Positions 5,851-57,858 of a DNA stretch of 64,000 nt are shown piece after piece. Each line of letters opens with the position of its first letter. Position 1 is the first letter of the stretch. This stretch comes from a virus. The translations under genes and the position numbers were made by a program. The notes under the pieces are model-generated. The model was not told the DNA's origin. It made no database searches and was given only the letters and a program-made list of their open reading frames with translations. The stretch spans positions 1-64,000 of the IMG/VR virus record IMGVR_UViG_3300018053_000002. The stretch is one strand, 5' to 3'.

Positions 5851-6716
5851 GCACGAGCAACTACGACGGAGAGGGGGCCGTGCTGGTACCCGGAGCCCTT
5901 CAAGGTTACCGGGCCTGGACGGTCGGTGTTGACTCCAAACTCCACGCGGTCTCGCAGCGGACTCTCTGGCCCGGATCGGAGCTGACCGCGGTATGTATGG
6001 CAGCGGGTGGCTCTAGTCTCGGAAACCTGGTGCACCGACCATCCTCGGACCAGCGGCCACCGATGAAAGATTGCCAGTGCGGGATCTACGCTAACCATCG
6101 ACCGGACATCAACGACTACTGGCGGAACGCCTCACACAACCCGTGGAGCATGGTGCTCACCGAAAACGCACAGCTACCGGGTGTCATCGAGGCGTGGGGG
6201 AAGGTGCGTCTGGGTAGCTTGGGGTTCCGGACCGAGCACGCGCGCATCGTCGCCATCGCATACCGTCCTCTCGGCCCGGTCCGGGTCCTGCAAGCAACAA
6301 CCAATCGAGGCACGGTGCACAACACGGACCTGGAAACTTACCACTGGCGGCGGGGGGTGTATAGGTGGGACGACTGGAACCTGAGACGGCAATTGCCAGA
6401 GCTTCGATTGGACGGTGTGGGAGAGTCTCTGGCTCCAGTTCTGGTCGCCGTTGTCCTTCTCGACGGCCTTGAATCACCGGTCCAACTGCGCATTGAGCTG
6501 GAGAGGGAACCGACCGCGCCGCCAACTATGGACTGGGCCACCACCACCGTCCATCAGGCCATCGCGAACCAGGAACAACAACTGGCCAAGAACTATCCGG
6601 GCGTGGAGATCTTCCACGACATCAACAAGATGGCCGCGGCGTTCCCGCCGGTCAGCATCGAGGATCTTGTCGACCAGGACACCGGCCACCTCCGTGCTGT
6701 GGGGGACCCTCCATGA
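5847..6716 (+). CDS. Hypothetical protein with GYRxW / CxCGIYA / WG.V...G.R motifs (possible ART-like fold)
   Basis: Motifs seen in translation; fold assignment is inference. Confidence 0.65.
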   Translation: MSTSNYDGEGAVLVPGALQGYRAWTVGVDSKLHAVSQRTLWPGSELTAVCMAAGGSSLGNLVHRPSSDQRPPMKDCQCGIYANHRPDINDYWRNASHNPWSMVLTENAQLPGVIEAWGKVRLGSLGFRTEHARIVAIAYRPLGPVRVLQATTNRGTVHNTDLETYHWRRGVYRWDDWNLRRQLPELRLDGVGESLAPVLVAVVLLDGLESPVQLRIELEREPTAPPTMDWATTTVHQAIANQEQQLAKNYPGVEIFHDINKMAAAFPPVSIEDLVDQDTGHLRAVGDPP

Positions 6717-7261
6717 ATTATCACGACGAACAGTACCGTGACTTCTCCTCTTCGTCTGATGTCTGCTTCATTCCTCAGGACGTGGCGGCCAAGGCGTACC
6801 GGGCCAAGCAACGGGGCCGGGCTCGGGCCAACCTGGAGGCGTTCTGCCTGGAGTGGCACGGGTGTGACCCCGACGGCAACGGGGGCGACCGTGAGGCCGC
6901 TCAGGAGGAGTTCGACGAGCTGGCCAATGCTCTCGGTCTGCTCCACGACGCCTCCTACGCGTACTGCCAGCAATGTAAGCAGCAGATGCCACTTCACGTC
7001 CTGATGCACACACGCTCGTACAGCCGGGCCGGCTACTGCTCAATGCGGTGCCAACGACTGGGTAACCTCGTCGCCGGCCCGGCAGCACGGGGAAAGGTGC
7101 TCAGTCATCCGGAGCAGTTCGCGGCCGAGGTGGTACGCCTCTACGTCGAGGTTGGTCTGTCCACGCGTCAGATCGCCGTCGAGCTGGGCTGGTCGCCACA
7201 GTTCATCCGGAAGACCCTCGCCACCGCGGGGATACCACTGAGGGGGGTGATCACACCATGA
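6713..7261 (+). CDS. Zn-finger plus C-terminal HTH (HTH_58-like) protein
   Basis: CQQC...CSMRC; LYVEVGLSTRQIAVELGWSPQFIRKTL...LRG. Confidence 0.7.
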   Translation: MNYHDEQYRDFSSSSDVCFIPQDVAAKAYRAKQRGRARANLEAFCLEWHGCDPDGNGGDREAAQEEFDELANALGLLHDASYAYCQQCKQQMPLHVLMHTRSYSRAGYCSMRCQRLGNLVAGPAARGKVLSHPEQFAAEVVRLYVEVGLSTRQIAVELGWSPQFIRKTLATAGIPLRGVITP

Positions 7262-7551
7262 TCGTCTACGTCTCGATCGGCAACAGTGACGATGGTCTGT
7301 CCCAGAGCGAGTGGGCTGAGTTCGTCGCCGATGTCCAGTCATTGCTCGGCGGGGTGAGGATCCATGGCGAGTGGTTCTCCCTGCCGCACGTGAAGTGGCA
7401 GAACGCCTGCTGGTGCATCGAAGTTCACGACCATGAATATAAGGAGGGGCTCCGTCTCCTGGCAATCAAATACCGGCAACGGTCAATCGCCTGGGCGGTA
7501 GCGCCGATACCGCAGTTCATCGGAAAGGAGGACACCCATGGGCCGGGGTAG
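7258..7551 (+). CDS. Hypothetical protein (SIGNSDD...G.W...Y.Q.SIAW)
   Basis: Coupled ORF with a motif-rich pattern. Confidence 0.7.
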   Translation: MIVYVSIGNSDDGLSQSEWAEFVADVQSLLGGVRIHGEWFSLPHVKWQNACWCIEVHDHEYKEGLRLLAIKYRQRSIAWAVAPIPQFIGKEDTHGPG

Positions 7552-7735
7552 AGGGCTGGAAGCTCGTGGCTGGACCGAGTCCAAGTTCACGGCCGAGGTG
7601 GTTCGCCGCTACGTCGAGGGTCAGACCATCAGGCAGATCGGGGACGAGATGGGTTGGTCCTACGGTTTTATCCACAAGACGCTACGAGCCTCTCACGCGG
7701 TTATCCGGAGTCGGGGACATCGGGTGAAGTCGTGA
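7538..7735 (+). CDS. Small HTH DNA-binding protein (HTH_58-like)
   Basis: YVEGQTIRQIGDEMGWSYGFIHKTL...RSRG; strong AAGGAGGA RBS. Confidence 0.8.
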   Translation: MGRGRGLEARGWTESKFTAEVVRRYVEGQTIRQIGDEMGWSYGFIHKTLRASHAVIRSRGHRVKS

Positions 7736-7959
7736 CCGAGGAACGATGCACCGTGACCGAGCTGCTCGTGGACCAGTGCGCGCATTGCCGACATCCTCGG
7801 GCGGGCCCGACTCGTGAACAGGTCCGACGAGGGCCATGGTTCCAGGCGTACTACGACGGTGTCTGCTCGGGCTGCGGGAACGGTATCCAACAGGGCGACA
7901 TGATCAGGGCCGATGGCGAGGGCGGTTGGCTGAACGAGTGCTGCGGAGGGGAGCCATGA
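7732..7959 (+). CDS. Cys-rich Zn-binding protein
   Basis: CAHC, CSGC, CC; GTGA coupling. Confidence 0.65.
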   Translation: MTEERCTVTELLVDQCAHCRHPRAGPTREQVRRGPWFQAYYDGVCSGCGNGIQQGDMIRADGEGGWLNECCGGEP

Positions 7960-8153
7960 AGATCTACGTGTGTATGCCGGTGAACGCCGAGGGGGTCGAG
8001 ATCGAATACACCGCCTCTGGATTATCGTATCGCCAGGTCGTCACTTACCGGTCTTCCCCACGCTGTGAACTCGTCGAACTGTGCGAGGCGACCCGTTACG
8101 GCGGGCTACCTCAGTGCTGTGGGGGGAGGTATCGTGATCCGACCAACCCCTGA
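7956..8153 (+). CDS. Hypothetical protein
   Basis: ATGA coupling, GGAGG RBS. Confidence 0.55.
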   Translation: MKIYVCMPVNAEGVEIEYTASGLSYRQVVTYRSSPRCELVELCEATRYGGLPQCCGGRYRDPTNP

Positions 8154-10771: not shown

Positions 10772-11267
10772 CAACCCTCCAACTGAATCTCGCCGGCTAC
10801 CTCGGCTCGTCCCCCCGTGTGAACGGCACTGTGGCTGTCCGACCTGTCACGTGAAGCCGGGCCAACGGTGCATCACGACCCGGCCCATCCACATGCAACC
10901 GTGGTCCGCGGCCGACCTGCGTTACGTTGGCAGCCCCACCTCGCCGCACCAGGCCCGGGTACGACTGTGGGCCCATCTCTTGGCGGGTGAAATTATGACC
11001 TTCCTAACCCATTCTCCCAGTCACGAGGAACGGTGCGTTGAGACACTGGCCATCCGCCAGATATGGGCCGCACTGCCCGAGTGGGCCCGTGAGGTCATTA
11101 TGGTTACCGCGGACGCGGAATCTGGAGTTGACCAGGGCCCACCCCTAGCCCACGTCCGGGCCTCATCCTGGTTGCGCTGGGCTCGACAGCTCTGGCTAAC
11201 GCTATGGCTTGAGGGCGAGACGCCACTGTCCGGTGAGACGCATGGAGGGGCCGTTGATGACCTCTGA
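10761..11267 (+). CDS. Zn-finger protein (CPTC.xKPG.RC...H)
   Basis: Cys/His motif; overlaps both neighbours. Confidence 0.6.
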   Translation: MRIDNPPTESRRLPRLVPPCERHCGCPTCHVKPGQRCITTRPIHMQPWSAADLRYVGSPTSPHQARVRLWAHLLAGEIMTFLTHSPSHEERCVETLAIRQIWAALPEWAREVIMVTADAESGVDQGPPLAHVRASSWLRWARQLWLTLWLEGETPLSGETHGGAVDDL

Positions 11268-13080
11268 CCCCGTGACGCGTGTGCTCGATGCCCTCCGGGA
11301 CTACGGGTCGGAGATCCGCGCCATCGCCGATGGTCACATGGCCCAGTGCCCGGCCCACAATGATCGCAACCCCTCTCTTCACGTGAGCGAGGGAGCTGAC
11401 GGGCGCGCGCTGGTCGACTGCAAGGCGGGGTGTCGGCTGGATGACGTGCTCTCCCCGCTGGGCCTGACCGAGCGGGACCTTTTCGTGGAATCGTTGGGGG
11501 GTAGCGGCTCGACTGGCACATATAAGGGGATGGCCGGTGTGCTCGCGCCGCGGTTGGATCCGGTGACCGACTACGTCTACACCGACGCGGCCGGCGTGCC
11601 CGTGATGAAGGTGACCCGGTTCAACCAGGTGGACCACTCGGGTGGCCTCATCGGCAAGACATTCCGCCAGTATGGACCGGACGGTGCCGGCGGCTGGCAG
11701 GCCGGACTGAACGGGAAGGTTCCCCCGCTCTACCGGCTACCCGAGGTGCTCGCCGCGGTGGCCACCGGTGGGACCGTGCTCGTGGTCGAGGGCGAGAAGG
11801 ATGCCGACCGGGCCACCTCGCTGGGGTTGGTCGCTACCACCTCGCCGATGGGTGCCGGGAAGTGGCGCGACGAGCACACGGCCAGTCTCACCGGCGGGGT
11901 CGTGGTGGTGGTGGTCGACGACGACGGGCCGGGCCGGGCTCATGCGCTGGCCGTCCACGAGGCTCTCAGTGCGGTGGCGCGCTCGGTCGTGATGGTGCTA
12001 CCCGCATCGGGCTGCAAGGACCTCAGCGAGCATCTGGACGCCGGCTACACCCTCTCTGCGCTGCGACCGGTCCTGCCCGAGCATCTGACCCAGGCGCCCG
12101 AGCAGCTCCCCCAGGACGAACTCCACGTGAGGCTGGCCATCCATCAGGGAAGGGTCGTCATGGCCGACGGGCTCGACACCATTCCGGTACCGACCATGCT
12201 CGTACACGACCTGCTCCAGACGGACTCACTGGCCTGGCTCCAGGGCAAGCCGGGCTCGTGCAAAACCTTCCTCGCGCTCGATCTGGCCGGCGCCGTGGGG
12301 ACCGGGCTCACCTGGCATGAGGGCCGTAAGGTACGCCAGGGATCGGTACTCTACGTAATCGCTGAGGGGGCCGGTGGGCTGCGGGCTCGGGTCCGGGCCT
12401 GGGAGTCGAGTGCCGGTCGACCGATGGGTCCGGTGGCGTTCCTGCCGATGGCGGTGCACCTGCTCGACCGTGTTGATCTCGGTGCGTTCTGTCTCCTGGT
12501 CTCGGAGATGACACCGTCGTTGATCGTGATCGACACCCAGGCGCGGGCCACGGTCGGAGCAGAGGAGAACTCAGCGAAGGACATGGGGCTCCTCGTCGAG
12601 GCGTTGGAACAGATCCGGGCGGCGTCCGGGGCGACCGTCCTTGTCGTGCATCACGAGGGTCGTAGTGGTGATCACCTCCGGGGCTCGACGGCGCTGGAGG
12701 GTGCCGCCACCACAGTGATGAAGGTCGATCGTGACGGGCCGGAACTCACGCTGTCGTGCCTCAAGCAGAAGGATGGCACCGAGTTCGAGCCAATCCGGTT
12801 TGCCCTGGTTCCCATGGGCGAGTCTGCTATCTGCGTGATGGCCGGTACGTCCGGTTCGGCGAGCCTTCTTAACCAGAGCGAACAGACGATCCTCAATTTC
12901 TTCCGGGACGGAAGTGAGACGGTCGGAGTGCCGTGGACAGTGATCCGGGACACCTCGGGACTGACTCGGACGACCGCGTACCGGGCCATGCAAGCCCTGG
13001 TCAGCCGTGGTGAGCTGCGCAATGTCGGGACTGCTGCCCGGATCATCCTGGTGGCCACTCGGAGAGGCAGCGTCCCATGA
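11257..13080 (+). CDS. DNA primase-helicase (Zn-binding + TOPRIM + RecA-like AAA_25 helicase + winged helix)
   Basis: CPAHND...C..GC; VEGEKD and DDD.PG TOPRIM; GKPGSCKT Walker A; LIVIDT Walker B; VVHH...RGS. Confidence 0.92.
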   Translation: MTSDPVTRVLDALRDYGSEIRAIADGHMAQCPAHNDRNPSLHVSEGADGRALVDCKAGCRLDDVLSPLGLTERDLFVESLGGSGSTGTYKGMAGVLAPRLDPVTDYVYTDAAGVPVMKVTRFNQVDHSGGLIGKTFRQYGPDGAGGWQAGLNGKVPPLYRLPEVLAAVATGGTVLVVEGEKDADRATSLGLVATTSPMGAGKWRDEHTASLTGGVVVVVVDDDGPGRAHALAVHEALSAVARSVVMVLPASGCKDLSEHLDAGYTLSALRPVLPEHLTQAPEQLPQDELHVRLAIHQGRVVMADGLDTIPVPTMLVHDLLQTDSLAWLQGKPGSCKTFLALDLAGAVGTGLTWHEGRKVRQGSVLYVIAEGAGGLRARVRAWESSAGRPMGPVAFLPMAVHLLDRVDLGAFCLLVSEMTPSLIVIDTQARATVGAEENSAKDMGLLVEALEQIRAASGATVLVVHHEGRSGDHLRGSTALEGAATTVMKVDRDGPELTLSCLKQKDGTEFEPIRFALVPMGESAICVMAGTSGSASLLNQSEQTILNFFRDGSETVGVPWTVIRDTSGLTRTTAYRAMQALVSRGELRNVGTAARIILVATRRGSVP

Positions 13081-16469: not shown

Positions 16470-16985
16470 ATGCCGCGGACCAAGAAGCCGGCCGGTACGG
16501 CTGTCAATCCACGCAATGGTCGTCGCGCGGATCTGGTCCCGATCGCCGGGGCACGATTCGATCCGCCCGAGGGTCTTTGCGAAGAAGCGACGACGGCCTG
16601 GGACTCCTACTGGGAAGACACTGTCGCCTGCGTGATGACGCCGGTTGACCGGGCCGTGCTCGTGCGCTGGGTTCGAGAGATGGATCGTTATCTACGTCTG
16701 TCGACGGAGGCGGATCTCAACCCCTCGGTGCGCGGTTCGCAGGGTCAGCCGGTCGAGAATCCGCTCTACGCGACGGCCTACAAGGCGCTCTCGGCAGTGC
16801 AGGCGTGCGAGAAGCAGATGGGGATGGGCGCACTGAACCGCTCGGCTCTGGGCATTGCGGTGATCACTGAACGCAAGAGCCTCGCCGAGATGAATGCCCG
16901 GTACGGGGGTGGCGACGATGCTGATCGCGACCGCCCTGCCATCGTCGCCGAGATCGTCGACCCGCGGAGAATCATCGAAGGCTGA
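16470..16985 (+). CDS. terS: Terminase small subunit (P27-like)
   Basis: W...W; GSQGQPVENPL; G...R..LG motifs; position. Confidence 0.85.
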   Translation: MPRTKKPAGTAVNPRNGRRADLVPIAGARFDPPEGLCEEATTAWDSYWEDTVACVMTPVDRAVLVRWVREMDRYLRLSTEADLNPSVRGSQGQPVENPLYATAYKALSAVQACEKQMGMGALNRSALGIAVITERKSLAEMNARYGGGDDADRDRPAIVAEIVDPRRIIEG

Positions 16986-18540
16986 CGGCTGTCCGGCGTG
17001 TGGCTGGAATCCGGCCGACGAGCTGTGGCCCAGTCACGGTGACATCGCGGTGCAGTGGATCAGCGACAATTGCATCTGTGGCGATGGCGACTGGTTCGGC
17101 CAGCCCATCAGGTTGCGCCTCGACCAGCAACGCTTTCTCTGGCGCTGGTACGAGTATTGCCCCGAGTGCAACCAGTGGCGCTATGACGAGGCACTGCGCG
17201 GTGCGGCCACCGGCGACGGCAAAACCCAGTTCATCGCGTCGATCGTGGTGCTGGAGTTCGCCGGCCCGCCACAGATCGCGCCATCCTCACCGATCATCCC
17301 GATTGCCGCCGCGAGCTTCGACCAGGCCAATCTCCTGTTTAGTGCCGTGGCTACGATCTGTGGTGGCCGAGATCAGAGCGTGCGTGAGTCGCCGTTGCGT
17401 GAGTTCTTCGAGGTCTACGACACGGTGATCAAGTTCGCCGACGGTCGGCCAGGTCTCATCGAGCGCGTCGCCGCGGTCGCGGGAACCAACGAGGGTGGTC
17501 TGCCGACGCTTTTCGTGCGTGATGAGTTGCATGAGTGGGGCGACGTCGGAGACCGCCGGGCCCGTGTCGCCACCGTCATCGGGAAGTCCACCAACAAGCG
17601 GCGTACGCCTCACGGCTCGGGCCGGATCATCAGCCTGTCCACGGCCGGGTTCGACATCGACCATTCTTTGCTCGGCGCCAAGTGCAAGCTCGGTGAGCGC
17701 GTGGTGCGGAATCCCTCGTTGTCGCCGCGGTTCCTCTACGACTGGCGCCAGGCGCCCGACGGGCTCGACTATCGGCTGCCGGCTGACCGTGAGATCGCGG
17801 TACGCGCTGCCTCCCAGGCGGCCGACGTGCTCTGGAACGTGCGAGACCGGGTCGACGACTGGGGAAAGCCCGAGTGGCCCGCGCATGAGTGGATCCGCTA
17901 TTACGCCAACCGGTGGGTCGACGTAGCCGAGGAGAGCTGGCTCAAGGACCACCCCGCCGCGTGGGTGCAGTGTGAGGGGACCTGGACGTCTAGTCCGTCG
18001 AACCCGTTTGTGGTCTCGGTGGACATGGCGTTGCGCCGGGACTCGGTAGCGGTCTCCCGGATCGAGCAACTGCCGGATGAACGCTTCGCCATCACGTCGC
18101 GAATCTGGGTTCCGACCGGTGCGCCGATCGACCACCTGGACGTGTTCAACCACGTACGCACGCTGGCCTACGGTGTCGGTTTCCGCGGTGTTGTGTACGA
18201 CCCCCGATTCTTTGAGTTGCCGGGTCGGATGCTGGAGGACGAGGGCATCCTCGTGGTCTCCTTTGACCAGTCGCCGCAGCGGATGGCGCCGGCGTGTGGG
18301 CTCGCCTTCGATCTCATCGTCAATCAGCGGATCGTGCATGACGGTGACCCCGAGCTGGGCGCGCACATCAAGGCGGCCGTGAAGCGTGAGCAGGAGCGCG
18401 GGTTCACGCTGAGCAAGGGCAAGAGCAAGCGGTCCATCGACGCAGCGATCACCCTGTGCATGGGTGTCTGGGTCCTCCACGAGCCGGCCGAACCGGTACA
18501 GCCGTTCTTCGGGACCTGGCGCGCGAGAGGTGGGGCCTGA
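16918..18540 (+). CDS. terL: Terminase large subunit
   Basis: Walker A GDGKT, Walker B RDELHE, STAG, nuclease VDMA..RD, YDP, IDAA. Confidence 0.95.
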   Translation: MLIATALPSSPRSSTRGESSKADGCPACGWNPADELWPSHGDIAVQWISDNCICGDGDWFGQPIRLRLDQQRFLWRWYEYCPECNQWRYDEALRGAATGDGKTQFIASIVVLEFAGPPQIAPSSPIIPIAAASFDQANLLFSAVATICGGRDQSVRESPLREFFEVYDTVIKFADGRPGLIERVAAVAGTNEGGLPTLFVRDELHEWGDVGDRRARVATVIGKSTNKRRTPHGSGRIISLSTAGFDIDHSLLGAKCKLGERVVRNPSLSPRFLYDWRQAPDGLDYRLPADREIAVRAASQAADVLWNVRDRVDDWGKPEWPAHEWIRYYANRWVDVAEESWLKDHPAAWVQCEGTWTSSPSNPFVVSVDMALRRDSVAVSRIEQLPDERFAITSRIWVPTGAPIDHLDVFNHVRTLAYGVGFRGVVYDPRFFELPGRMLEDEGILVVSFDQSPQRMAPACGLAFDLIVNQRIVHDGDPELGAHIKAAVKREQERGFTLSKGKSKRSIDAAITLCMGVWVLHEPAEPVQPFFGTWRARGGA

Positions 18541-18728
18541 TGGTTGCACTCACGACGCGTGCCCGCGGTCTTGGGCCCATTGTGCTGACGTCGATTGGTG
18601 CCCTCGTCATCGGGGCTGGTTGGCTGACTCACCGGATCGTTGCCGGGTCCTGGTTCGCTATGACCTGGATCGCCGCAGCGTTCATGGAGGGCTGGGCCTC
18701 GGCTCAGCGGCCACGTGTCGTTTCTTGA
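18540..18728 (+). CDS. Small membrane protein between terL and portal
   Basis: Two hydrophobic segments; TGATG coupling. Confidence 0.6.
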   Translation: MVALTTRARGLGPIVLTSIGALVIGAGWLTHRIVAGSWFAMTWIAAAFMEGWASAQRPRVVS

Positions 18729-21444
18729 CCGCATCAACGCTCGGCACCGTGGCGAGACGCGCAACTCGATCGACGGGTGGGTCAGCGACTATCTGTTTCC
18801 GGCCTCTGGCATGTTCGGGTTCGGTGGCAACCAGTACCCGTACGGGCTGAACACGACCTACTCCCGGCTGGCCGTCCAGGAGATCTCCTCGACCTTGCCG
18901 GGGCATATGGCCGCGGTACGGGGCTGCCCGCCAGCATTCGCAGCGGAGATGGTGCGGGCGCTGGTGCTCTCTCAGACGCGCTTCACGTTCCGGAACCCGC
19001 CCAGTCATCCCAAGACGCCGCGGCGGACGTTTGGCACGGGGGCGCTCTCGTTGCTGGAGCACCCGTGGCCGAACGCGACTACCGGCGAGCTGGTTGCCCG
19101 GATGGAATGGCACGCCGGTCTTGCTGGCAACGCCTTCGTCACCAACCGGACCGCGGGTCGGTTGCGGGTGCTGCGTCCGGACTGGGTAGCCATCCTGTAC
19201 GGCAGCGACCAGGAACCGGAGATGGCCGCGCACGCGCTCGACGGCGAGCTGCTCGGCTATGTCTATTGCCCTGGTGGGTTGGTGTCGACGGGACTTTCCT
19301 TGGCGCCGGCTGGCGGTGGAGAGCTTTACACCTTGCTGCCTCACGAGGTCGCGCACTGGTCGCCGCTGCCTGATCCTGAGGGTGCCGGTATCGGGATGTC
19401 CTGGATTACGCCGGCCATCCGGGAGATTCAGGGTGACACCATTGCTGCGCAGCACAAGGTTCTGTTCTTCCAGAATGCGGCGACCCCGAATCTTGTGGTC
19501 AAGGGCATTCCGGCGCTGACGAAAGATCAATTTGATGAGATCGTCGGTGCGATGGAGGAGCAGCACGCCGGTATTAGGAACGCTTACAAGACCCTTTACC
19601 TGACTGCCGGCGCCGATGCCACCGTGGTGGGCGCCAATATGCAGGAGGTCGACTTCAAATCCACGGTGGGTAGCGGTGAAACGCGGATCTCGTTCCTGTC
19701 GCGGGTGCCGGCACCGGTGCTGGGAATCTCAGAAGGACTCGCCGGGTCGAGCTTGAACGCCGGCAACTTTGGACAGGCCCGTCGCAACTTTAGTGACACC
19801 TGGGTGTACCCGACGCTGCAAGATCTCTGCGCTGCGCTCGTGTCGATGGTCCGGGTTCCCTCGGATGCCGAGCTGTGGTACGACGTCACGGACATGCCGT
19901 TGCTTCGTGAGGACGCGAAGGATGCGGCCGAGATCATCAATATTCAGGTTGAGGGTGTCACTAAGGCCGTTCGAGAGGGCTTTACCGCCGTTTCCTCGAT
20001 CGCTGCGATTGCTGGTCAGAACGTCAATCTGCTGGTGCACACTGGTCTGACCTCCGTCCAGCTCCAGAAGCCGGGGGAGGATCCGAATGACCCGTCCGCC
20101 GGTGACACTGGGCCCGACGGTGAGCCCACCGATGATAAGACTCAAGCTCTGTCTGATGCGTTGGACGAGGTTTCTGCTAGTCGGAACGTTGAAGAGCGCG
20201 TGAAGGTGCCGAGGAAACGGCTGCCTAGTTCGCGTCACCGAGGGGGTGCGTGGGCGATGTCTATGGACCCCCAGCTTCGGCATCGGACGTTGCAATTGAT
20301 CGGGCTTGCGGATCGCAATGCTGTTCCTGACGATTCAGACGACCTTGACGAGGATGCGGCGGCGCTCCTCTGGGCTCTTCAGGAGATCGAAGACCTGGAC
20401 GATGAGATCGAGGAGGCCCCTTCGGCTCGGAATCGAGCGCTTCGTCTGGCCGGTGTGGAGCGTGCATGGACCGCTGCCCAAGCCGCTAAGCATCCTCGCA
20501 ATTTGAAGGGCCCGGGTGGCGGGCGGTTCCGGTCGTTGTCACAGAGGCTCATTGACTGGATGTCAAGCATGGGCAATCGTGAGGACAGTCCGTTTGATGG
20601 CTTTGACCGAAAGCAACTGGCAAAGGTTGCTAGAGCGCGTGGTCTGAAGGTCGATCGTAAGGACGATCGGGATGCGATCATCGACAAGCTGGTTGATAAC
20701 CTTGAGTTCAAGGATCCTGGGAAGAAGGAAAGCCTGAAGAAGGCGATAGCCGGGAAGAAGAGCCGGGCACTGCACAAGTCGGTGGCGGTAGAGAAGGACC
20801 AGTTTGGCCAGGAGATAGCCCCGAAGGCGGTCCCGAAGGCGGTCCCGAAGGCGAAGCCTGGCCCTGATGATGTCGCGATCAGCAAGGCGCTACGGTCGCT
20901 GTCCTCGGGAGAGTTTGCCAGTATCGATGGAAGCCAGATCGATGCGTTCATGGCGGCCATGAGGGGCCAGGATCCTCCGGTCAATCTCTCATACCTCAAG
21001 GTGAACGGTCCTGGTAATGGGAACCTCTATGACCGGCATCTGCGGGACATTCCCCGATCGGAGATGCCGCAACTACCGACGACCGTTGAGGACTTGCAGG
21101 CGTTCCGTCTCAAGCTCGCCGACATGAACGTCAAGACAACTTATGAGCAGGTTGACCCGCGAACTCTCGTCGCGACACAGAGCGAGCTGAACGGTCCGAA
21201 GGTTGCGAAGCTGTTTGGTTTCATGCGCGAGGGCGGATGGCAAGAGGGTGGCGCGCTCATCATCTCACGCGAGGGGGCCGTGCTGGACGGGCATCACCGT
21301 TGGGCTGGTGCTGCTGCTGCCCGTGCGGCCGGCAAGGACATCAACGTCACGGCACTCCGAGTTGACATGGGTATTGACGAGCTTCTGGACGTGGCGCAGA
21401 CGGTGTCGCTTCCCCGTAAGTCGCTCGACGAGGCTCCGAAGTAG
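18715..21444 (+). CDS. HK97-type portal protein fused in frame to a tagged extension carrying a ParB/Srx-like domain
   Basis: Portal motifs (LL..P.PN.T, GNAF, LRPD.V, FF.N.ATP, VP..LG) in the first ~450 aa; C-terminal LDGHHRW ParB-like domain; internal RBS+ATG at 20257. Confidence 0.85.
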   Translation: MSFLDRINARHRGETRNSIDGWVSDYLFPASGMFGFGGNQYPYGLNTTYSRLAVQEISSTLPGHMAAVRGCPPAFAAEMVRALVLSQTRFTFRNPPSHPKTPRRTFGTGALSLLEHPWPNATTGELVARMEWHAGLAGNAFVTNRTAGRLRVLRPDWVAILYGSDQEPEMAAHALDGELLGYVYCPGGLVSTGLSLAPAGGGELYTLLPHEVAHWSPLPDPEGAGIGMSWITPAIREIQGDTIAAQHKVLFFQNAATPNLVVKGIPALTKDQFDEIVGAMEEQHAGIRNAYKTLYLTAGADATVVGANMQEVDFKSTVGSGETRISFLSRVPAPVLGISEGLAGSSLNAGNFGQARRNFSDTWVYPTLQDLCAALVSMVRVPSDAELWYDVTDMPLLREDAKDAAEIINIQVEGVTKAVREGFTAVSSIAAIAGQNVNLLVHTGLTSVQLQKPGEDPNDPSAGDTGPDGEPTDDKTQALSDALDEVSASRNVEERVKVPRKRLPSSRHRGGAWAMSMDPQLRHRTLQLIGLADRNAVPDDSDDLDEDAAALLWALQEIEDLDDEIEEAPSARNRALRLAGVERAWTAAQAAKHPRNLKGPGGGRFRSLSQRLIDWMSSMGNREDSPFDGFDRKQLAKVARARGLKVDRKDDRDAIIDKLVDNLEFKDPGKKESLKKAIAGKKSRALHKSVAVEKDQFGQEIAPKAVPKAVPKAKPGPDDVAISKALRSLSSGEFASIDGSQIDAFMAAMRGQDPPVNLSYLKVNGPGNGNLYDRHLRDIPRSEMPQLPTTVEDLQAFRLKLADMNVKTTYEQVDPRTLVATQSELNGPKVAKLFGFMREGGWQEGGALIISREGAVLDGHHRWAGAAAARAAGKDINVTALRVDMGIDELLDVAQTVSLPRKSLDEAPK
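20248..20276 (+). repeat. 29-bp direct repeat, copy 1 (copy 2 at 25405-25433)
   Basis: GCGTGGGCGATGTCTATGGACCCCCAGCT identical at both sites. Confidence 0.9.
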
Positions 21445-25812: not shown

Positions 25813-27399
25813 ATGACGTCTGTCCCGACGATGACTGTGCCTGTCCGGACCTGGGACCACCGGGCGGACTCGAAAGAGCCCTACGGTCCTGCGTCGAAAG
25901 CCCACTATGCCGACCCCGGCTACCAGAAGGACGGTCAGAAGCGCTACCCGCTCGACTCCGAGGACCATTGTCGAGCTGCCTGGTCGTACATCAATCAAGC
26001 GGCCAACGCAGCCAAGTACACGCCCGACGAGCTGGCCCGGATCAAGGGCCGGATCAAGGCTGCCGGGAAGAAATATGGCATCGAGTTCTCCGACCAGCGG
26101 TCACGGTCGCTGCGGTTCTTTGATGAGAGCAAGTACGAACGTGACCCCAAGAATCAGCCAACCGGCGGCCAGTTCAAGACCAAGGCTGCGGAGAAGGCAC
26201 CGGCCAAAAAGACTACCAAGAAGGCGCCCGCCAAGAAGGCGACGACGCGTCGGCCCGCAGCCAAGAAGGCTGAGTCATCTAAGGGTGATATGGCCTATGA
26301 CCCGGACACCGGGCGTGGTCCTGGCTACGGCACAGCCGGTGGCGATGCGCGGGTCAAGCAGCTTCAGACCGCTCTGAACCGGCTGGGTCTTACCGATTCA
26401 CGTGGCCAGAAGCTCAAGGTCGACGGGAAGTTGGGTCCCAAGACCACCCAAGCCATCAAAGCAGCACAACGACGCCTCGGCATGAAGGCGGATGGACGGG
26501 TGACTCCTGCCATGCTAGCTCAATTCTCCGGCGCCAAGTCGCTGTCTAAGAGAGCGAAACCCAAGAACTGCACCTGTGGGTCCGTGGAATGCATCGCCGA
26601 CGAATGTGGGGATGACACGGAGTACCGCCGGACTGTGCCAGACGTCTGCGTGCGCGCGTTCGACTTCGAGTCACGTTCTCGCGGTGGCGATGGGCGCACG
26701 CTGGAGGGCTACGTGGCGGTGTTCGGTGCTGTTGCGCGGATCGCTTCCAGTCAGGGCGGTGACTTCGACGAGGAGATCCATCGCGGCGCATTCGACGACT
26801 CGCTGGGACGCTCTTTCCCGGTAATGCAGTTCGACCATGGTCGTGACACCCGTGTCGGGTCAGTGCCGATCGGGGTCTATGAGGTGTTCGAGCCCGACAG
26901 TCGTGGCTACTTCGTCCGCGGCAAGCTGCTCGACAACCCCGTCGTGGAGCCGGTCCGGCAGGCCATTACCGCGGGCGCCATCCGTGGCATGAGCTGGCGG
27001 ATGATGGTCGACCCCGCCAAGGGGTCCCGATGGACCCGTCGCAGTGGCCAGGTCGACAAGCGCGATGTGATCCGGGCCGATGTTCCGGAAGCCGGGCCCG
27101 TCGTTTTCCCGGCCTATGACGCCACTACTGTTTCTGTCCGCTCGATCCTCGCGGCAATGCCAGAAGAGGAACGAGCGGCACTCGTCCGTGAGCTTGCAGC
27201 CGAGGTTCGGCTCGCCGTGGACCTTAATGACTTCACCGGGCGATCGAGTGCATGGAGCACAGATGGCGGTGAACTCGGCCCCGAACGGCAGGAGCCAGAG
27301 GAGCCAACCAGCACAGACATAACCGCCCGCTTCCATGACCCTGATCCGGCTCAAGCCGGTAGGGAACGGTTGCTACGCCTACAAGGAGTTCTTAAGTGA
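25813..27399 (+). CDS. Prohead protease (HK97 gp4-like) with N-terminal DUF6582-like and peptidoglycan-binding domains
   Basis: LEGY.AVF, FDHG...PIG, GMSW, E.GPV.FPAY..T; YADPG..KRYPLD; VKQLQTALN...DG..GPKT..AI...Q PGBD. Confidence 0.88.
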   Translation: MTSVPTMTVPVRTWDHRADSKEPYGPASKAHYADPGYQKDGQKRYPLDSEDHCRAAWSYINQAANAAKYTPDELARIKGRIKAAGKKYGIEFSDQRSRSLRFFDESKYERDPKNQPTGGQFKTKAAEKAPAKKTTKKAPAKKATTRRPAAKKAESSKGDMAYDPDTGRGPGYGTAGGDARVKQLQTALNRLGLTDSRGQKLKVDGKLGPKTTQAIKAAQRRLGMKADGRVTPAMLAQFSGAKSLSKRAKPKNCTCGSVECIADECGDDTEYRRTVPDVCVRAFDFESRSRGGDGRTLEGYVAVFGAVARIASSQGGDFDEEIHRGAFDDSLGRSFPVMQFDHGRDTRVGSVPIGVYEVFEPDSRGYFVRGKLLDNPVVEPVRQAITAGAIRGMSWRMMVDPAKGSRWTRRSGQVDKRDVIRADVPEAGPVVFPAYDATTVSVRSILAAMPEEERAALVRELAAEVRLAVDLNDFTGRSSAWSTDGGELGPERQEPEEPTSTDITARFHDPDPAQAGRERLLRLQGVLK

Positions 27400-28883
27400 G
27401 CACCGCCACTCGCACCGCCGTTCGTGATGACGACGGCAACCGCGGGTTCGACCTGACCATGGAGGACCTGCAAAACAAGACACCGGAGGATCTGCGCGAC
27501 ATCATCAGCATCACGGAGGCTCACCTTCGCGAGCTGCACCAGGACGAGCGTGGTTCCCTGCGCATCCTGGACGAGGCCGAGCAGGCTGCATTCGACATTG
27601 CCATGGAGATCCGCAACGCGGCCATGGACATGCTCGACAAGCACAACGAGATCCGGTCCGTGCTCCAGCGCCGGCCAAAGTCGGTTGAGCGTGCGCTGTC
27701 CAGCATGGGCCACCGTGATGACGACCCGTACTCGAACGTGCGGCGTATGACCCATGCCGAGGCTCGTGACAAGGCACTTCGGGTGCTGGACACGCGCGAG
27801 GCTAAGTCGTCGCTCAGCGCTCCGCAGATGGACCAGGTTGAGAAGCAGGTCCGTCGGGACTCTGACATCGCCAAGCGGTTGCTGGTCACCGAGACCGAGC
27901 ACTACCGCAGCGCATGGATGAAGGTTGTCACCGATCCCAACGGGATGGGTCTGCTCGACGACGAGGAGCGTAACGCCCTTCGCGCCTACCAGGAATACCG
28001 GGCAATGTCCGAAGGTGTCACCACCGCAGGTGGATTCGGAATCCCCGTATTCATCGACCCATCTATTATCCTCACTGCCCAGGAATCGGGCAACCCGTTC
28101 CTCACCCTGGCCCGTCAGGTCACCGTCAACACGAACGCCTGGAAAGGTGTCTCGTCCGCCGGTGTCACCTGGCAGTTCCAGGCCGAGGCGGCCACGGCCA
28201 CGGACGCAAGCCCGGTGCTCGCTCAGCCGTCTGTCACAGTGTTCATGGCTCGTGGTCTGATCCCCTTCTCCATCGAGGTTGGCCAGGACTACCCGTCCTT
28301 CGCCGACGAGATGGCGACTCTGCTCGCGGCCGGTTACGACGAGCTGCTCGTGGACAAGTTCACGCGCGGCTCTGGCTCCAACGAGCCGAGGGGCATCCTC
28401 ACGGCCCTGTCCGCCAACACAAACGTCCGCATCACGCTGACGACTTCTGGCTCCATCGGTTCGCCTGACCCGTACAAGGTGTGGGCGGCCCTTCCCCAGA
28501 AATTCCGTCGTCGCGCCAACTGGCTTATGTCGGTTGACGTCAACAACAAGTTCCGCCAGCTCGGTACTGCGAACGTGTTCCATGCGTACACGCAGAACCT
28601 TCCGGCGGAATGGGCGGACATTCTGTTCGGTAAGGGTGTCTACGAGAGCCCGTACATGCCGGACTCGACCACCTCGACCTCTGCGACGACTGGTCTGGCC
28701 GTCGTTGGGGACTGGCAGAACTACGTCCTGGCCCGGCGCGGCGGCATGACCGTCGAGCTGATCCAGAACTTGGTTGACGTGACCACCAACATGCCGACCG
28801 GCCAGCGCGCCTGGTTCGGGTACGCACGTATCGGTGGCAACTCGGTCAACGACCTCGGCTTCCGGCTGTTGGTCAACACCTGA
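27396..28883 (+). CDS. Major capsid protein (HK97 fold, N-terminal delta domain)
   Basis: RAMS...GGF.IP, G.G..EP.GI, LFG..V, GDW..Y...R, R.GG motifs; follows protease. Confidence 0.95.
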   Translation: MSTATRTAVRDDDGNRGFDLTMEDLQNKTPEDLRDIISITEAHLRELHQDERGSLRILDEAEQAAFDIAMEIRNAAMDMLDKHNEIRSVLQRRPKSVERALSSMGHRDDDPYSNVRRMTHAEARDKALRVLDTREAKSSLSAPQMDQVEKQVRRDSDIAKRLLVTETEHYRSAWMKVVTDPNGMGLLDDEERNALRAYQEYRAMSEGVTTAGGFGIPVFIDPSIILTAQESGNPFLTLARQVTVNTNAWKGVSSAGVTWQFQAEAATATDASPVLAQPSVTVFMARGLIPFSIEVGQDYPSFADEMATLLAAGYDELLVDKFTRGSGSNEPRGILTALSANTNVRITLTTSGSIGSPDPYKVWAALPQKFRRRANWLMSVDVNNKFRQLGTANVFHAYTQNLPAEWADILFGKGVYESPYMPDSTTSTSATTGLAVVGDWQNYVLARRGGMTVELIQNLVDVTTNMPTGQRAWFGYARIGGNSVNDLGFRLLVNT

Positions 28884-56422: not shown

Positions 56423-56616
56423 TCCCTCAGGACAATATAGACGTAGGCCCCGAGCTGCTGTGGGTACCAGTGCACGCCATGCACACGGTAGGTCCGTTCG
56501 TTTTCGCCGAGCGAGACAGTGTCGCCGACGCGAGGAGCGGCCTCCATGGTGAGGTCTAGACTGAAGCCTTCACCTGCCGGGCCGACGCCGCGTGGTGCAT
56601 GAAATCGGATCTTCAT
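56419..56616 (-). CDS. Hypothetical protein (PRVGD.V)
   Basis: Coupled at both ends. Confidence 0.65.
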   Translation of the reverse strand: MKIRFHAPRGVGPAGEGFSLDLTMEAAPRVGDTVSLGENERTYRVHGVHWYPQQLGAYVYIVLRD

Positions 56617-57107
56617 AGGTCCTCAGCGTTGGCGATGGCGAGGAACGCCGGCTCGTCGAATCTCAGCATGAGTAGCTGGGCGATCATCGCATCCTCGGTG
56701 GGTAGGCGCTGGTTGGCACCCTGCCACATGTCCGGATGGGCGCACAGACGTTGCCGGCGGCCGTTCAGTCGCTCGATGTTCTGGGAGACGCCGTGCCGGA
56801 TCAGGTAGTGACCACCAGCCGACCCGATGACCCGGAACGACCTATCTCTGTTGTAGCGGCCCCGTTCGGTTGGACTGAGCAGGGATCGGAGGGTGGCCTG
56901 AGCCCGCTCTTCAGCCGCATTCTCGCGCGCACGCTGCTCTTCACGTTCCCGGTCCCGCTCAGCTCGTTGTACCTCGCGCTCTCGGGCTAGCTCAGCTCGT
57001 CGTTCCAAGGTGACGGTGTAGCTCGTGGTCAGTGGGGCGTAGTACATGGTGCCCAACGTGATCCAGGTCCCCGTCGTGCTCGCGGTCGTGGTCAGGTAGA
57101 CGGGCAC
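56613..57107 (-). CDS. Hypothetical protein with LCAHP and P..D...AQ.L.L..DE..FL..AN motifs
   Basis: Motif-rich C-terminal domain; start uncertain. Confidence 0.7.
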   Translation of the reverse strand: MPVYLTTTASTTGTWITLGTMYYAPLTTSYTVTLERRAELAREREVQRAERDREREEQRARENAAEERAQATLRSLLSPTERGRYNRDRSFRVIGSAGGHYLIRHGVSQNIERLNGRRQRLCAHPDMWQGANQRLPTEDAMIAQLLMLRFDEPAFLAIANAEDL

Positions 57108-57108
57108 C

Positions 57109-57234
57109 TCAGGGACGCCAGCCTGACAACCAAGCAGTGATCAATACGCCGCCGAGACCCATGCAAAAGCTGAAGATGAAGACGGGGCGCCAGTAGGTCC
57201 ACCAGGTCTGGCGTACGTGTGACCGTATGGGCAC
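57109..57234 (-). CDS. 41-aa membrane peptide
   Basis: GTG right after upstream stop; single TM. Confidence 0.5.
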   Translation of the reverse strand: MPIRSHVRQTWWTYWRPVFIFSFCMGLGGVLITAWLSGWRP

Positions 57235-57235
57235 C

Positions 57236-57463
57236 TCAGCCACCAGCCAACGGCGGGGTCAGCATGATGCGCTCGTGCTCGGGGTTGAACTCACGGATCA
57301 CCTCGCCACGGTTGCCGTCACGATCCAGGCGGTAGGCCAGGTAGCCCTTCTTCCTCATGGCGGTGAAGTGGGCTCGGGCGGGCTCGACCTCATCCGGGAG
57401 GGAGGCGTCCCAGTTCATCGTGGTGTCGCCGGACGGGTCGAGGGTGCTCATCTGGTGCGTCAT
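57236..57463 (-). CDS. 75-aa protein ending PPLAGG (candidate ubiquitin-like/sulfur-carrier-like)
   Basis: C-terminus RIMLTPPLAGG resembles MoaD/CysO-type ends. Confidence 0.7.
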   Translation of the reverse strand: MTHQMSTLDPSGDTTMNWDASLPDEVEPARAHFTAMRKKGYLAYRLDRDGNRGEVIREFNPEHERIMLTPPLAGG

Positions 57464-57490: not shown

Positions 57491-57858
57491 GGGAGGACGC
57501 GAGCGGTGTATGCCCCTAAGATCTCGCGTCCTCCCGGCATGAGCTAACGGGAGGCTCGATGGTCCTACCCACTACCCACGCCTTGTGGCCGACGTTACGT
57601 TCAGCCTTTCGGGTCGTCAAGGCATCCGAGACAGTTGATCTGCGCCGGGTTCCTTGACTCGCTCTCTATCCGGCCTTAGCGTGACCATGCCCCGCACACC
57701 GGGGGGACTTTGGGGCTGGCTTGCGGGCGCGACGTCGGGCCAGCCCCAAAGTGTTGGGACATCCCACTAAAGGGTCGTACGGCTAGGGGTTCCAGGCCAG
57801 AGCTGCGACCCGCTCAGGGGCCGACCCCCGCCTCCACACACCAGGGTCGGCCCCTGAG
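57491..57858. other. Hairpin-dense non-coding region
   Basis: Stems at 57491-57503/57523-57535, 57616-57622/57652-57658, 57708-57720/57739-57751, 57813-57827/57844-57858. Confidence 0.6.

Follow-up and report, generated by a model that had tools for sequence, protein, structure and literature searches.

What use could a phage that encodes no ubiquitin-activating enzyme (E1) make of a small protein that ends in a conserved Gly-Gly, and of a partner protein with a single cysteine? The locus that raises this question lies in the 64,000 nucleotides analysed here (the window), which are the first 64 kb of the 74-kb IMG/VR virus record IMGVR_UViG_3300018053_000002 (completeness estimate 81%), the record of a tailed phage. 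Open reading frame (ORF) A, of 75 amino acids (aa), stands at the head of a leftward operon and ends in GG; ORF C lies two genes downstream, with ORF B in between, and its only cysteine sits in the motif LCAHP. An initial annotation had described both ORFs in this way and had read them as a candidate ubiquitin-like (Ubl) protein and its thioester acceptor, and the description of the genes is accurate. We find that A and C are a fixed, translationally coupled pair and that environmental phages commonly carry this two-gene unit. In appearance it is a protein-tagging or carrier device reduced to its essentials, lacking an activating enzyme of its own. We tentatively propose that A and C make up a minimal thioester module of the Ubl/E2-like kind (E2, ubiquitin-conjugating enzyme), activated by a host E1 of the MoeB/ThiF type or without any E1.

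The sequence end on which this proposal turns is well defined. ORF A closes with ERIMLTPPLAGG, the codons of Gly74 (57244-57242) and Gly75 (57241-57239) being followed by a TGA stop at 57238-57236, and a GGAG lies 8 nt ahead of its ATG. An exhaustive HMMER search of 1.84 billion cluster representatives returned 1095 relatives at E<=1e-3 and 116 at E<=1e-10. Conservation of the GG was a check called for in the initial annotation, and it comes out in favour of the idea: among the best 152 of the 1095 relatives, 143 end exactly in GG, and in nearly all of the best 150 query residue 75 is aligned to the last residue of the protein. The other ends among these 152 are AG, SG or PG, extra residues past the GG (GGG, GGA, GGC, GGGR, GGRWPR), or spurious; a few members of the family carry residues after GG in the form GGGFA, GGALGYD, GGA or GGC. 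The family consensus reads ...GDT..WD...P.EVe.Ar..F..l.kKGYlAY.v...G..GE.i.eFDP.aE.Ii..PP..GG, with a mean column identity of 40%, in which Gly12, Phe59 and Gly75 are invariant and Gly74 is nearly so. Clusters of the family in the ESM Atlas are labelled hypothetical and are 71-83% viral where the taxon is known. Searches with A in Pfam, PHROGs, NCBIfam, PADLOC and PDB sequence profiles gave no match, and a word-based protein search found only A itself.

The second piece of evidence is the company that A keeps. A scan with the family alignment fetched 38 related loci from IMG/VR, with G+C contents of 27-71%. A homologue of C follows directly after A in 26 of the 38 by BLASTP, and in 37 both by single-linkage clustering and by a hidden Markov model (HMM) of the C domain; in the remaining locus the sequence stops just past A, so that C is found downstream in all 37 testable loci, a co-occurrence that the initial annotation had put forward for checking. 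In these loci the start of C mostly falls between -8 and +6 nt from the stop of A, often as TGATG. Taken together, the conserved terminal GG and the A-C linkage lie well beyond chance, because the GG is kept in 143/152 relatives and the linkage in 37/37 testable loci. Pairwise distances within the A and C families are also correlated (Mantel r 0.66, a value reached by 0/2000 permutations), which points to joint inheritance and not necessarily to contact between the proteins. Genes for an AAA ATPase, a family A DNA polymerase and a NADAR protein occur beside the pair, which places it in an early or replication-related and variable setting; beyond A and C, every gene family is limited to 9 or fewer of the 38 neighbourhoods.

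A tblastn search with A, four of its relatives and C against 50,697 phage records found only the uncultured phage Rctr197k and the 595-kb metagenomic phage LR756511, the latter with A-like matches. Rctr197k (KX853510.1, locus L001) is the only GenBank phage record in which the pair was confirmed: its gene 113 encodes a tandem double beta-grasp protein ending in IPG and its gene 112 a homologue of C (hmmsearch E 1.3e-17), both annotated as hypothetical. BFVD holds, as A0A1P8DIR1, a further C-like protein of this phage, 245 aa long and probably the product of gene 110, and an annotated CRISPR array lies about 1.2 kb upstream of gene 113. No cultured carrier of the pair was found in the phage records, BFVD yielded only two proteins of the Rctr type, and megablast of the region against the phage records gave no match. 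Plasmids likewise gave no match, and no relative turned up when 185,579 species genomes were scanned with two patterns, which were narrow, so that this is weak evidence of absence from cellular genomes. As a variation on the unit, the phage of locus L035 has two tandem C-type genes after A (6310-6744 and 6746-8101), the second of which is fused to a calcineurin-like phosphoesterase (PF00149, E 5.8e-8).

For the fold of A we used AlphaFold2 with a 60-sequence alignment. The model (predicted local distance difference test, pLDDT, 90.9; predicted template modelling score, pTM, 0.77) has strands at residues 2-9 and 12-19, a helix at 23-38, strands at 42-46, 52-56 and 65-69, and a less confident tail at 70-75. 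A is accordingly predicted, with high confidence, to be a beta-grasp protein with a free tail, its elements following the beta-beta-alpha-beta-beta-beta order of ubiquitin-like proteins. Fold comparisons agree in kind. Foldseek against the PDB gave weak matches only (best E 0.015), among them PB1, SUMO, ubiquitin, FAT10, SAMP1, MoaD and the Ubl of the bacterial E1-E2-Ubl complex 8tyz (BilA, 8tyz_B). A search independent of Foldseek listed protein L, PB1, the Raf Ras-binding domain (RBD), Mth1743, TtuB, SUMO, BubA (9eav_C), MoaD and SAMP1 at Z of 5.3 or below, and a further search, topped by protein L, protein G and the Raf RBD, reached Z of at most 5.7, where by the fold tool's own caution a Z below 8 may reflect only a common arrangement. 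These lists are made up almost wholly of beta-grasp proteins. The suspicion of a beta-grasp fold voiced in the initial annotation is borne out by the model; the predicted fold class is clear, but no subfamily can be named.

The tail of A has a more specific resemblance. When the profile of the A family is compared with E. coli MoaD by hhalign, only the last 22 columns align, and they are placed at the exact C-terminus of MoaD (EVIREFNP---EHERIMLTPPLAGG against QTLVSFDHPLTDGDEVAFFPPVTGG; E 0.005 for this single comparison, probability 7%). The tail IMLTPPLAGG of A resembles VAFFPPVTGG of MoaD. We treat this match as a resemblance of tails and not as proof of homology.

ORF C contains exactly one cysteine, Cys122 (TGC at 56744-56742). 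Leu73, Cys122 and Asp139 are the same in all of the 38 non-identical C domains compared, and conservation is also high for Pro136 (37), His124 (31), Asn160 and Glu152 (30 each), Gln144 (29), and Asn110 and Pro125 (28 each). The AlphaFold2 model of C, built from 26 sequences, has a pLDDT of 88.8 overall and 97-98 in the head domain. In this model a Thr-rich N-terminus (1-34) leads into a coiled-coil helix (29-76) and an alpha-beta4-alpha head (79-164), the latter with a helix at 79-88, strands at 90-94, 100-104, 111-113 and 119-122, a loop, a helix at 137-158 and a final strand. The head would therefore have the layout of the UBC/RWD/UEV superfold, with the invariant cysteine in the loop between strand 4 and the long helix. 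Cys122 stands at the end of the fourth strand, ahead of the loop and the long helix, and judging from the order of the secondary structure elements this would be the position of the catalytic cysteine of an E2.

The UBC-like fold suggested for C in the initial annotation finds weak support. Against the whole PDB, the best matches of C are the RWD domain 2daw (Z 5.0, 103 residues aligned), Ubc9 (4y1l_C; Z 4.6, root-mean-square deviation 2.9 over 83 residues) and the RWD domains of GCN2 (Z 4.5 and 4.3), followed by the BRISC chain 6h3c_C (Z 3.7), a UEV-containing subunit, and by the UEV-like domain of VPS37A (Z 3.6); this ranking leaves aside the remaining rows, which are coiled coils that match the stalk. 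Foldseek against the PDB found nothing significant for C, its top non-significant rows being Mad1, Ndc80 and MIND, which are proteins that combine coiled coils with RWD domains. The Pfam models of E2, RWD and UEV domains match neither C at E<=0.1 nor 26 of its homologues at E<=0.01. In Pfam, PHROGs, NCBIfam and PADLOC there was nothing meaningful for C, the only matches falling on its charged coiled coil; a PDB sequence-profile search returned nothing relevant, and a word-based search returned a near-identical copy and two relatives. Since a Z below 8 may, by the fold tool's own caution, reflect only a common arrangement, the predicted UBC/RWD-like fold is a well-motivated lead rather than a result, and weakly assigned. 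A search for longer proteins had a single find, the 516-aa metagenomic protein P0156, which has two C domains in one frame.

Another feature of the C family lies ahead of the coiled coil. The N-termini of the homologues are rich in Thr and Trp, poor in Lys, and carry repeated WxxW(N) motifs, of which 46 are observed in 37 N-termini as against 9.8 expected from shuffles (examples are L025:6216-6545, L014:6233-6505 and L020:6233-6505). The C protein of the window has a short Thr-rich stretch only, while ORF B carries TWWTYW. The WxxW(N) segment might be a short motif that binds A; as a speculation by analogy, the repeats bring to mind short motifs that bind Ubls, the W-x-x-L Atg8-interacting motif being one of them.

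Where, then, could activation come from? ThiF (PF00899) is found neither in the phage's own 74-kb record nor in the 35 related phage records, 10 of which are at least 90% complete, and the same search was positive in 14 of 14 control genomes. No Prok-JAB protein is present in the own record, and elsewhere in this set there are only two fragments, below the cut-off and with stop codons. The initial annotation had recognised neither an E1/ThiF nor a JAB gene in the window, and this now extends to the whole record and its relatives. PADLOC holds no relevant model for either A or C.

If A and C do work together in the way we propose, the carboxylate of the last glycine of A would first be activated. 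This could be done by a host adenylating enzyme of the MoeB/ThiF/MoeZ type, because the tail of A mimics that of MoaD, or it could proceed in an E1-free manner as in E2-only CBASS (cyclic-oligonucleotide-based antiphage signalling system). The activated tail would then be handed to Cys122 of C as a thioester, and A might finally, at an early stage of infection, be transferred to a lysine on a protein of the host or the phage. Enzymes of the MoeB/ThiF/MoeZ type are nearly universal and recognise tails of the PPxxGG type, and with TtuB, the SAMPs and Urm1 the sulfur-carrier E1s also serve conjugation, with no E2. The thioester, the source of activation and the target are what we infer for the pair. 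In a fuller form, which we consider somewhat unlikely, the pair would be a two-protein ubiquitin-like tagging device of tailed phages from many bacterial phyla, with the GG loaded onto the partner cysteine through a hijacked host sulfur-carrier E1 (MoeB/ThiF/MoeZ) or through no E1, and then attached to host or phage proteins during infection.

Several points weigh against the proposed module. A free carboxylate needs activation before it can form a thioester, and no activating enzyme is encoded; no target, E3 or deconjugating enzyme is evident. All structural matches are weak, with Z of at most 5.7 and Foldseek E of at least 0.015 for A, and Z of at most 5.0 and no PDB Foldseek match for C. 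No sequence model of ThiS/MoaD, ubiquitin, UQ_con, Prok-E2 or RWD matches either protein, and some divergent members of the A family end in KG, AG, SG or PG. Protein C has no HPN motif before the cysteine, its motif being C-x-H-P with the histidine after the cysteine. In favour of the proposal, bacterial E2-like proteins of class 6d are described as lacking the classical histidine and having a conserved one C-terminal to the cysteine (Iyer et al. 2006, PMC1779556).

A comparison with systems of known chemistry sets these points in context. E2-only (type II short) CBASS (10.1101/2022.05.25.493364; PMC12948482) is like A-C in having two components, no E1 and no JAB, and in that a small E2-type partner takes up a C-terminal glycine, which becomes joined to the catalytic cysteine of that partner, as is proposed for A-C. 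In that system the stand-alone E2 removes the residue after the C-terminal glycine of cGAS and forms the Gly-Cys thioester without E1, a nearby histidine being required (bioRxiv 10.1101/2022.05.25.493364). The thioester is thus paid for by the cutting of a residue after the glycine, and this is a further point against our proposal in its E1-free version, since the route needs a leaving residue and yet about 94% of A proteins end at GG. The two systems differ in other respects as well: the donor in E2-only CBASS is the nucleotidyltransferase CD-NTase (CdnG/cGAS), whereas A is a predicted beta-grasp protein; its E2 is a recognisable E2 homologue, whereas C matches no E2 model; and it serves host defence, whereas A and C are phage genes.

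The Bil (BilABCD) and Bub operons (PMC10557695, PMC11601596, PMC11601603; classes 6c/6d, PMC1779556) resemble A-C in having a small beta-grasp Ubl with a C-terminal glycine and, as a putative counterpart of C, an E2-like protein with a conserved cysteine and a later histidine, and both BilA (8tyz_B) and BubA (9eav_C) are among the fold matches of A. These operons, however, always include an E1 of the ThiF family together with JAB or another peptidase, neither of which is present in the 36 A-C phage records, and they are bacterial defence systems, whereas the A-C genes are in phages and have no PADLOC match. Among phage proteins, the tail assembly protein I (TAPI) of lambda and T1 (PMC1779556) is the only ThiS/MoaD-like beta-grasp protein with a conserved C-terminal glycine that we found described. 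TAPI is encoded among the tail genes, continues into another domain at its C-terminal side and has protein K, a JAB+NlpC/P60 protein, as its partner; A, in contrast, belongs to a leftward operon of early or accessory genes at a distance from those for the tail, ends at its GG, and has a cysteine protein and no JAB as partner.

Reading the same features without tagging, A could be a non-covalent decoy or inhibitor, which we judge unlikely. By mimicking the tails of host sulfur carriers (MoaD, ThiS, CysO) or of defence Ubls (BilA, or the tails of CD-NTases), A would occupy a host E1, either MoeB/ThiF/MoeZ or that of Bil, Bub or type II CBASS. The role of C would be to keep A bound or to display it, or else to capture the E1-activated tail on its own cysteine. 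The phage would gain by blocking a Ubl-based defence of the host or a host pathway, with proteins left untagged. The absence of an E1, JAB or E3 from these phages would fit such a role, as would the MoaD-like tail, the wide range of G+C content among the carriers, and the location of the pair in early or accessory regions with variable neighbours, as is often the case for counter-defence genes. Moreover, UEV and RWD domains, which are among the best fold matches of C, bind Ubls or other partners without catalysis. On the other hand, the invariant Cys and Asp of C favour chemistry over simple binding, and no PADLOC model and no known anti-defence family matches the pair. The free terminal GG does not discriminate, as it is needed for recognition by an E1 under decoy and tagging alike.

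Less probable again is a sulfur-carrier pair, in which A would be adenylated and thiocarboxylated by host MoeB/ThiF/MoeZ and a cysteine desulfurase, as are MoaD, ThiS, CysO and TtuB, and C, by way of a persulfide or acyl-disulfide on Cys122, would draw on the thiocarboxylate for the thiolation of a nucleotide, a tRNA, a DNA base or a small molecule to the benefit of the phage. A has much in common with the carriers of the ThiS/MoaD/CysO/TtuB/SAMP/Urm1 kind (PF02597): the predicted beta-grasp fold, a similar size, a free ...PPxxGG tail that aligns with the C-terminus of MoaD, and a tight coupling of a small gene with its partner gene as in moaD-moaE, which are 1 nt apart in E. coli. TtuB, MoaD, SAMP1 and Mth1743 are all among its fold matches, and the nearest named cluster in the ESM Atlas is of the ThiS family, though with a score of only 0.76. 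PF02597 itself, however, matches neither A (E<=0.1) nor any of 60 relatives, and searching all six frames of the record gave no hit even at E<=10. There is no phage E1, no cofactor or thiolation gene lies nearby, and no gene for sulfur metabolism or nucleotide modification is conserved beside the pair. C as a MoaE-like protein was considered and rejected (hhalign probability 0.1%), and ThiG, TtuA, rhodanese and TusA-like proteins are all missing from the fold matches listed for C.

It is also improbable that A and C form a structural or regulatory heterocomplex without Ubl chemistry, with convergent folds and with GG and Cys kept for packing, redox sensing or metal binding. In support of this reading, every fold match falls in the range flagged as a possible common arrangement, neither protein is matched by a family model, and the top scores for A go to domains of protein L and protein G, neither of them a modifier. 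Against it, packing hardly accounts for a GG that holds the two final positions in about 94% of a family with only about 40% identity, since the tail is predicted to be free, and a lone invariant cysteine with no other conserved metal ligands makes no metal site. Sequence cannot separate the tagging, decoy, sulfur-carrier and non-catalytic readings from each other.

Set against all of these systems, the A-C pair fails at least one defining feature of each of E2-only CBASS, Bil/Bub, the ThiS/MoaD carriers and TAPI-JAB, and full-text searches of the literature found no description of A or C. What is new is a pair of a putative Ubl and a putative E2-like protein that is phage-borne and without E1; the Ubl/E2-like kind itself is known. 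To our knowledge, work on bacterial Ubl conjugation has until now dealt with host defence (Bil, Bub, type II CBASS) or with sulfur transfer, always with an E1, E2-only CBASS being the exception. A very large family of E1-less pairs in phages would mean that a host E1 is borrowed, that there is a new route of Gly-Gly activation, or that the pair is a decoy against host Ubl machinery, and any of these three outcomes would add a viral side to the origin story of ubiquitin-type systems. Should the fuller form of the proposal hold, prokaryotes would have a ubiquitin-like system of viral origin that is directed at the host or at Ubl-based defences. With 75 aa in A, 164 aa in C and obvious proposed catalytic residues, direct testing at the bench is feasible.

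Table. Coordinates and assignments of the A-C operon and of other phage genes in the window (positions are those of the window; minus-strand genes are given from start to stop).
Feature	Position	Strand	Description
Primase-helicase	11209-13080
Large terminase	16894-18540
Portal	18715-21444
Protease	25813-27399	plus	528 aa
Major capsid protein	27396-28883
ORF A	57463-57236	minus	75 aa, C-terminus ...PPLAGG
ORF B	57243 or 57234-57109	minus	41-44 aa, Trp-rich, hydrophobic, probably membrane-spanning stretch
ORF C	57107-56613	minus	164 aa, single Cys in LCAHP
ORF D	56616-56419	minus	65 aa, no assignment
ORF E	56422-56024	minus	132 aa, SLOG/YspA-like; phrog_16939 E 1.7e-19; PF10686 E 1.2e-4, below Pfam cut-off
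ORF F	56024-55794	minus	76 aa, no assignment
HTH (helix-turn-helix) protein	55759-55094	minus	221 aa; two HTH regions; HTH_28; phrog_151 'transposase'
Lsr2-like nucleoid-associated protein	55075-54644	minus	143 aa; phrog_1223 E 1.9e-12

In the phage itself, A and C are present as one copy each. ORF A is the first gene past an intergenic region of about 800 bp and heads a gene string on the strand opposite to the terminase, portal and capsid genes, which lie at 17-29 kb, whereas A is at 57.4 kb. From A down to 55794 the genes overlap or abut, and the HTH and Lsr2-like genes, which form the end of the leftward operon, follow after short gaps of 34 and 18 nt. The host is probably an actinobacterium, to judge from the terminase, whose closest relatives are those of Streptomyces and Thermobifida phages (24-28% identity), and from the presence of the Lsr2-like gene.

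The initial annotation had mentioned the SLOG gene (ORF E) after that of C; a homologue lies within 6 kb of the pair in only 2 of the 38 related loci, so its presence here is incidental and it is rejected as a member of the unit. The same goes for ORFs D and F (65 and 76 aa), the HTH gene and the Lsr2-like gene, which have 0-2 homologues in the 38 loci. ORF B splits a pair that is adjacent elsewhere and has no homologue in the 38 loci; by this comparison it is peculiar to this phage and does not count among the conserved genes of the unit. Of its two candidate start positions, the GTG at 57234 is the more plausible. The A/B and B/C junctions (57228-57238 and 57101-57111) share an 11-nt direct repeat, CTGAGGTGCCC, and therefore B and C both begin with Met-Pro right after a TGA. 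The TWWTYW of ORF B resembles the WxxW-rich N-termini of C homologues. An origin of ORF B as a DNA duplicate of the 5' end of C was rejected, as the 11-nt junction repeat is all that the two have in common.

Two observations concern other parts of the window. The intergenic region upstream of A contains three perfect hairpins with stems of 13-15 bp (57491-57535, 57707-57752 and 57813-57858), the first of which ends 28 nt ahead of the start codon of A; no Rfam family matches them above threshold. The 528-aa ORF listed as the protease, directly upstream of the major capsid gene, has endolysin-like matches over residues 110-245 and a match to a head maturation protease over residues 277-467, and is either an unusual fusion or an ORF whose start codon has been called too far upstream.

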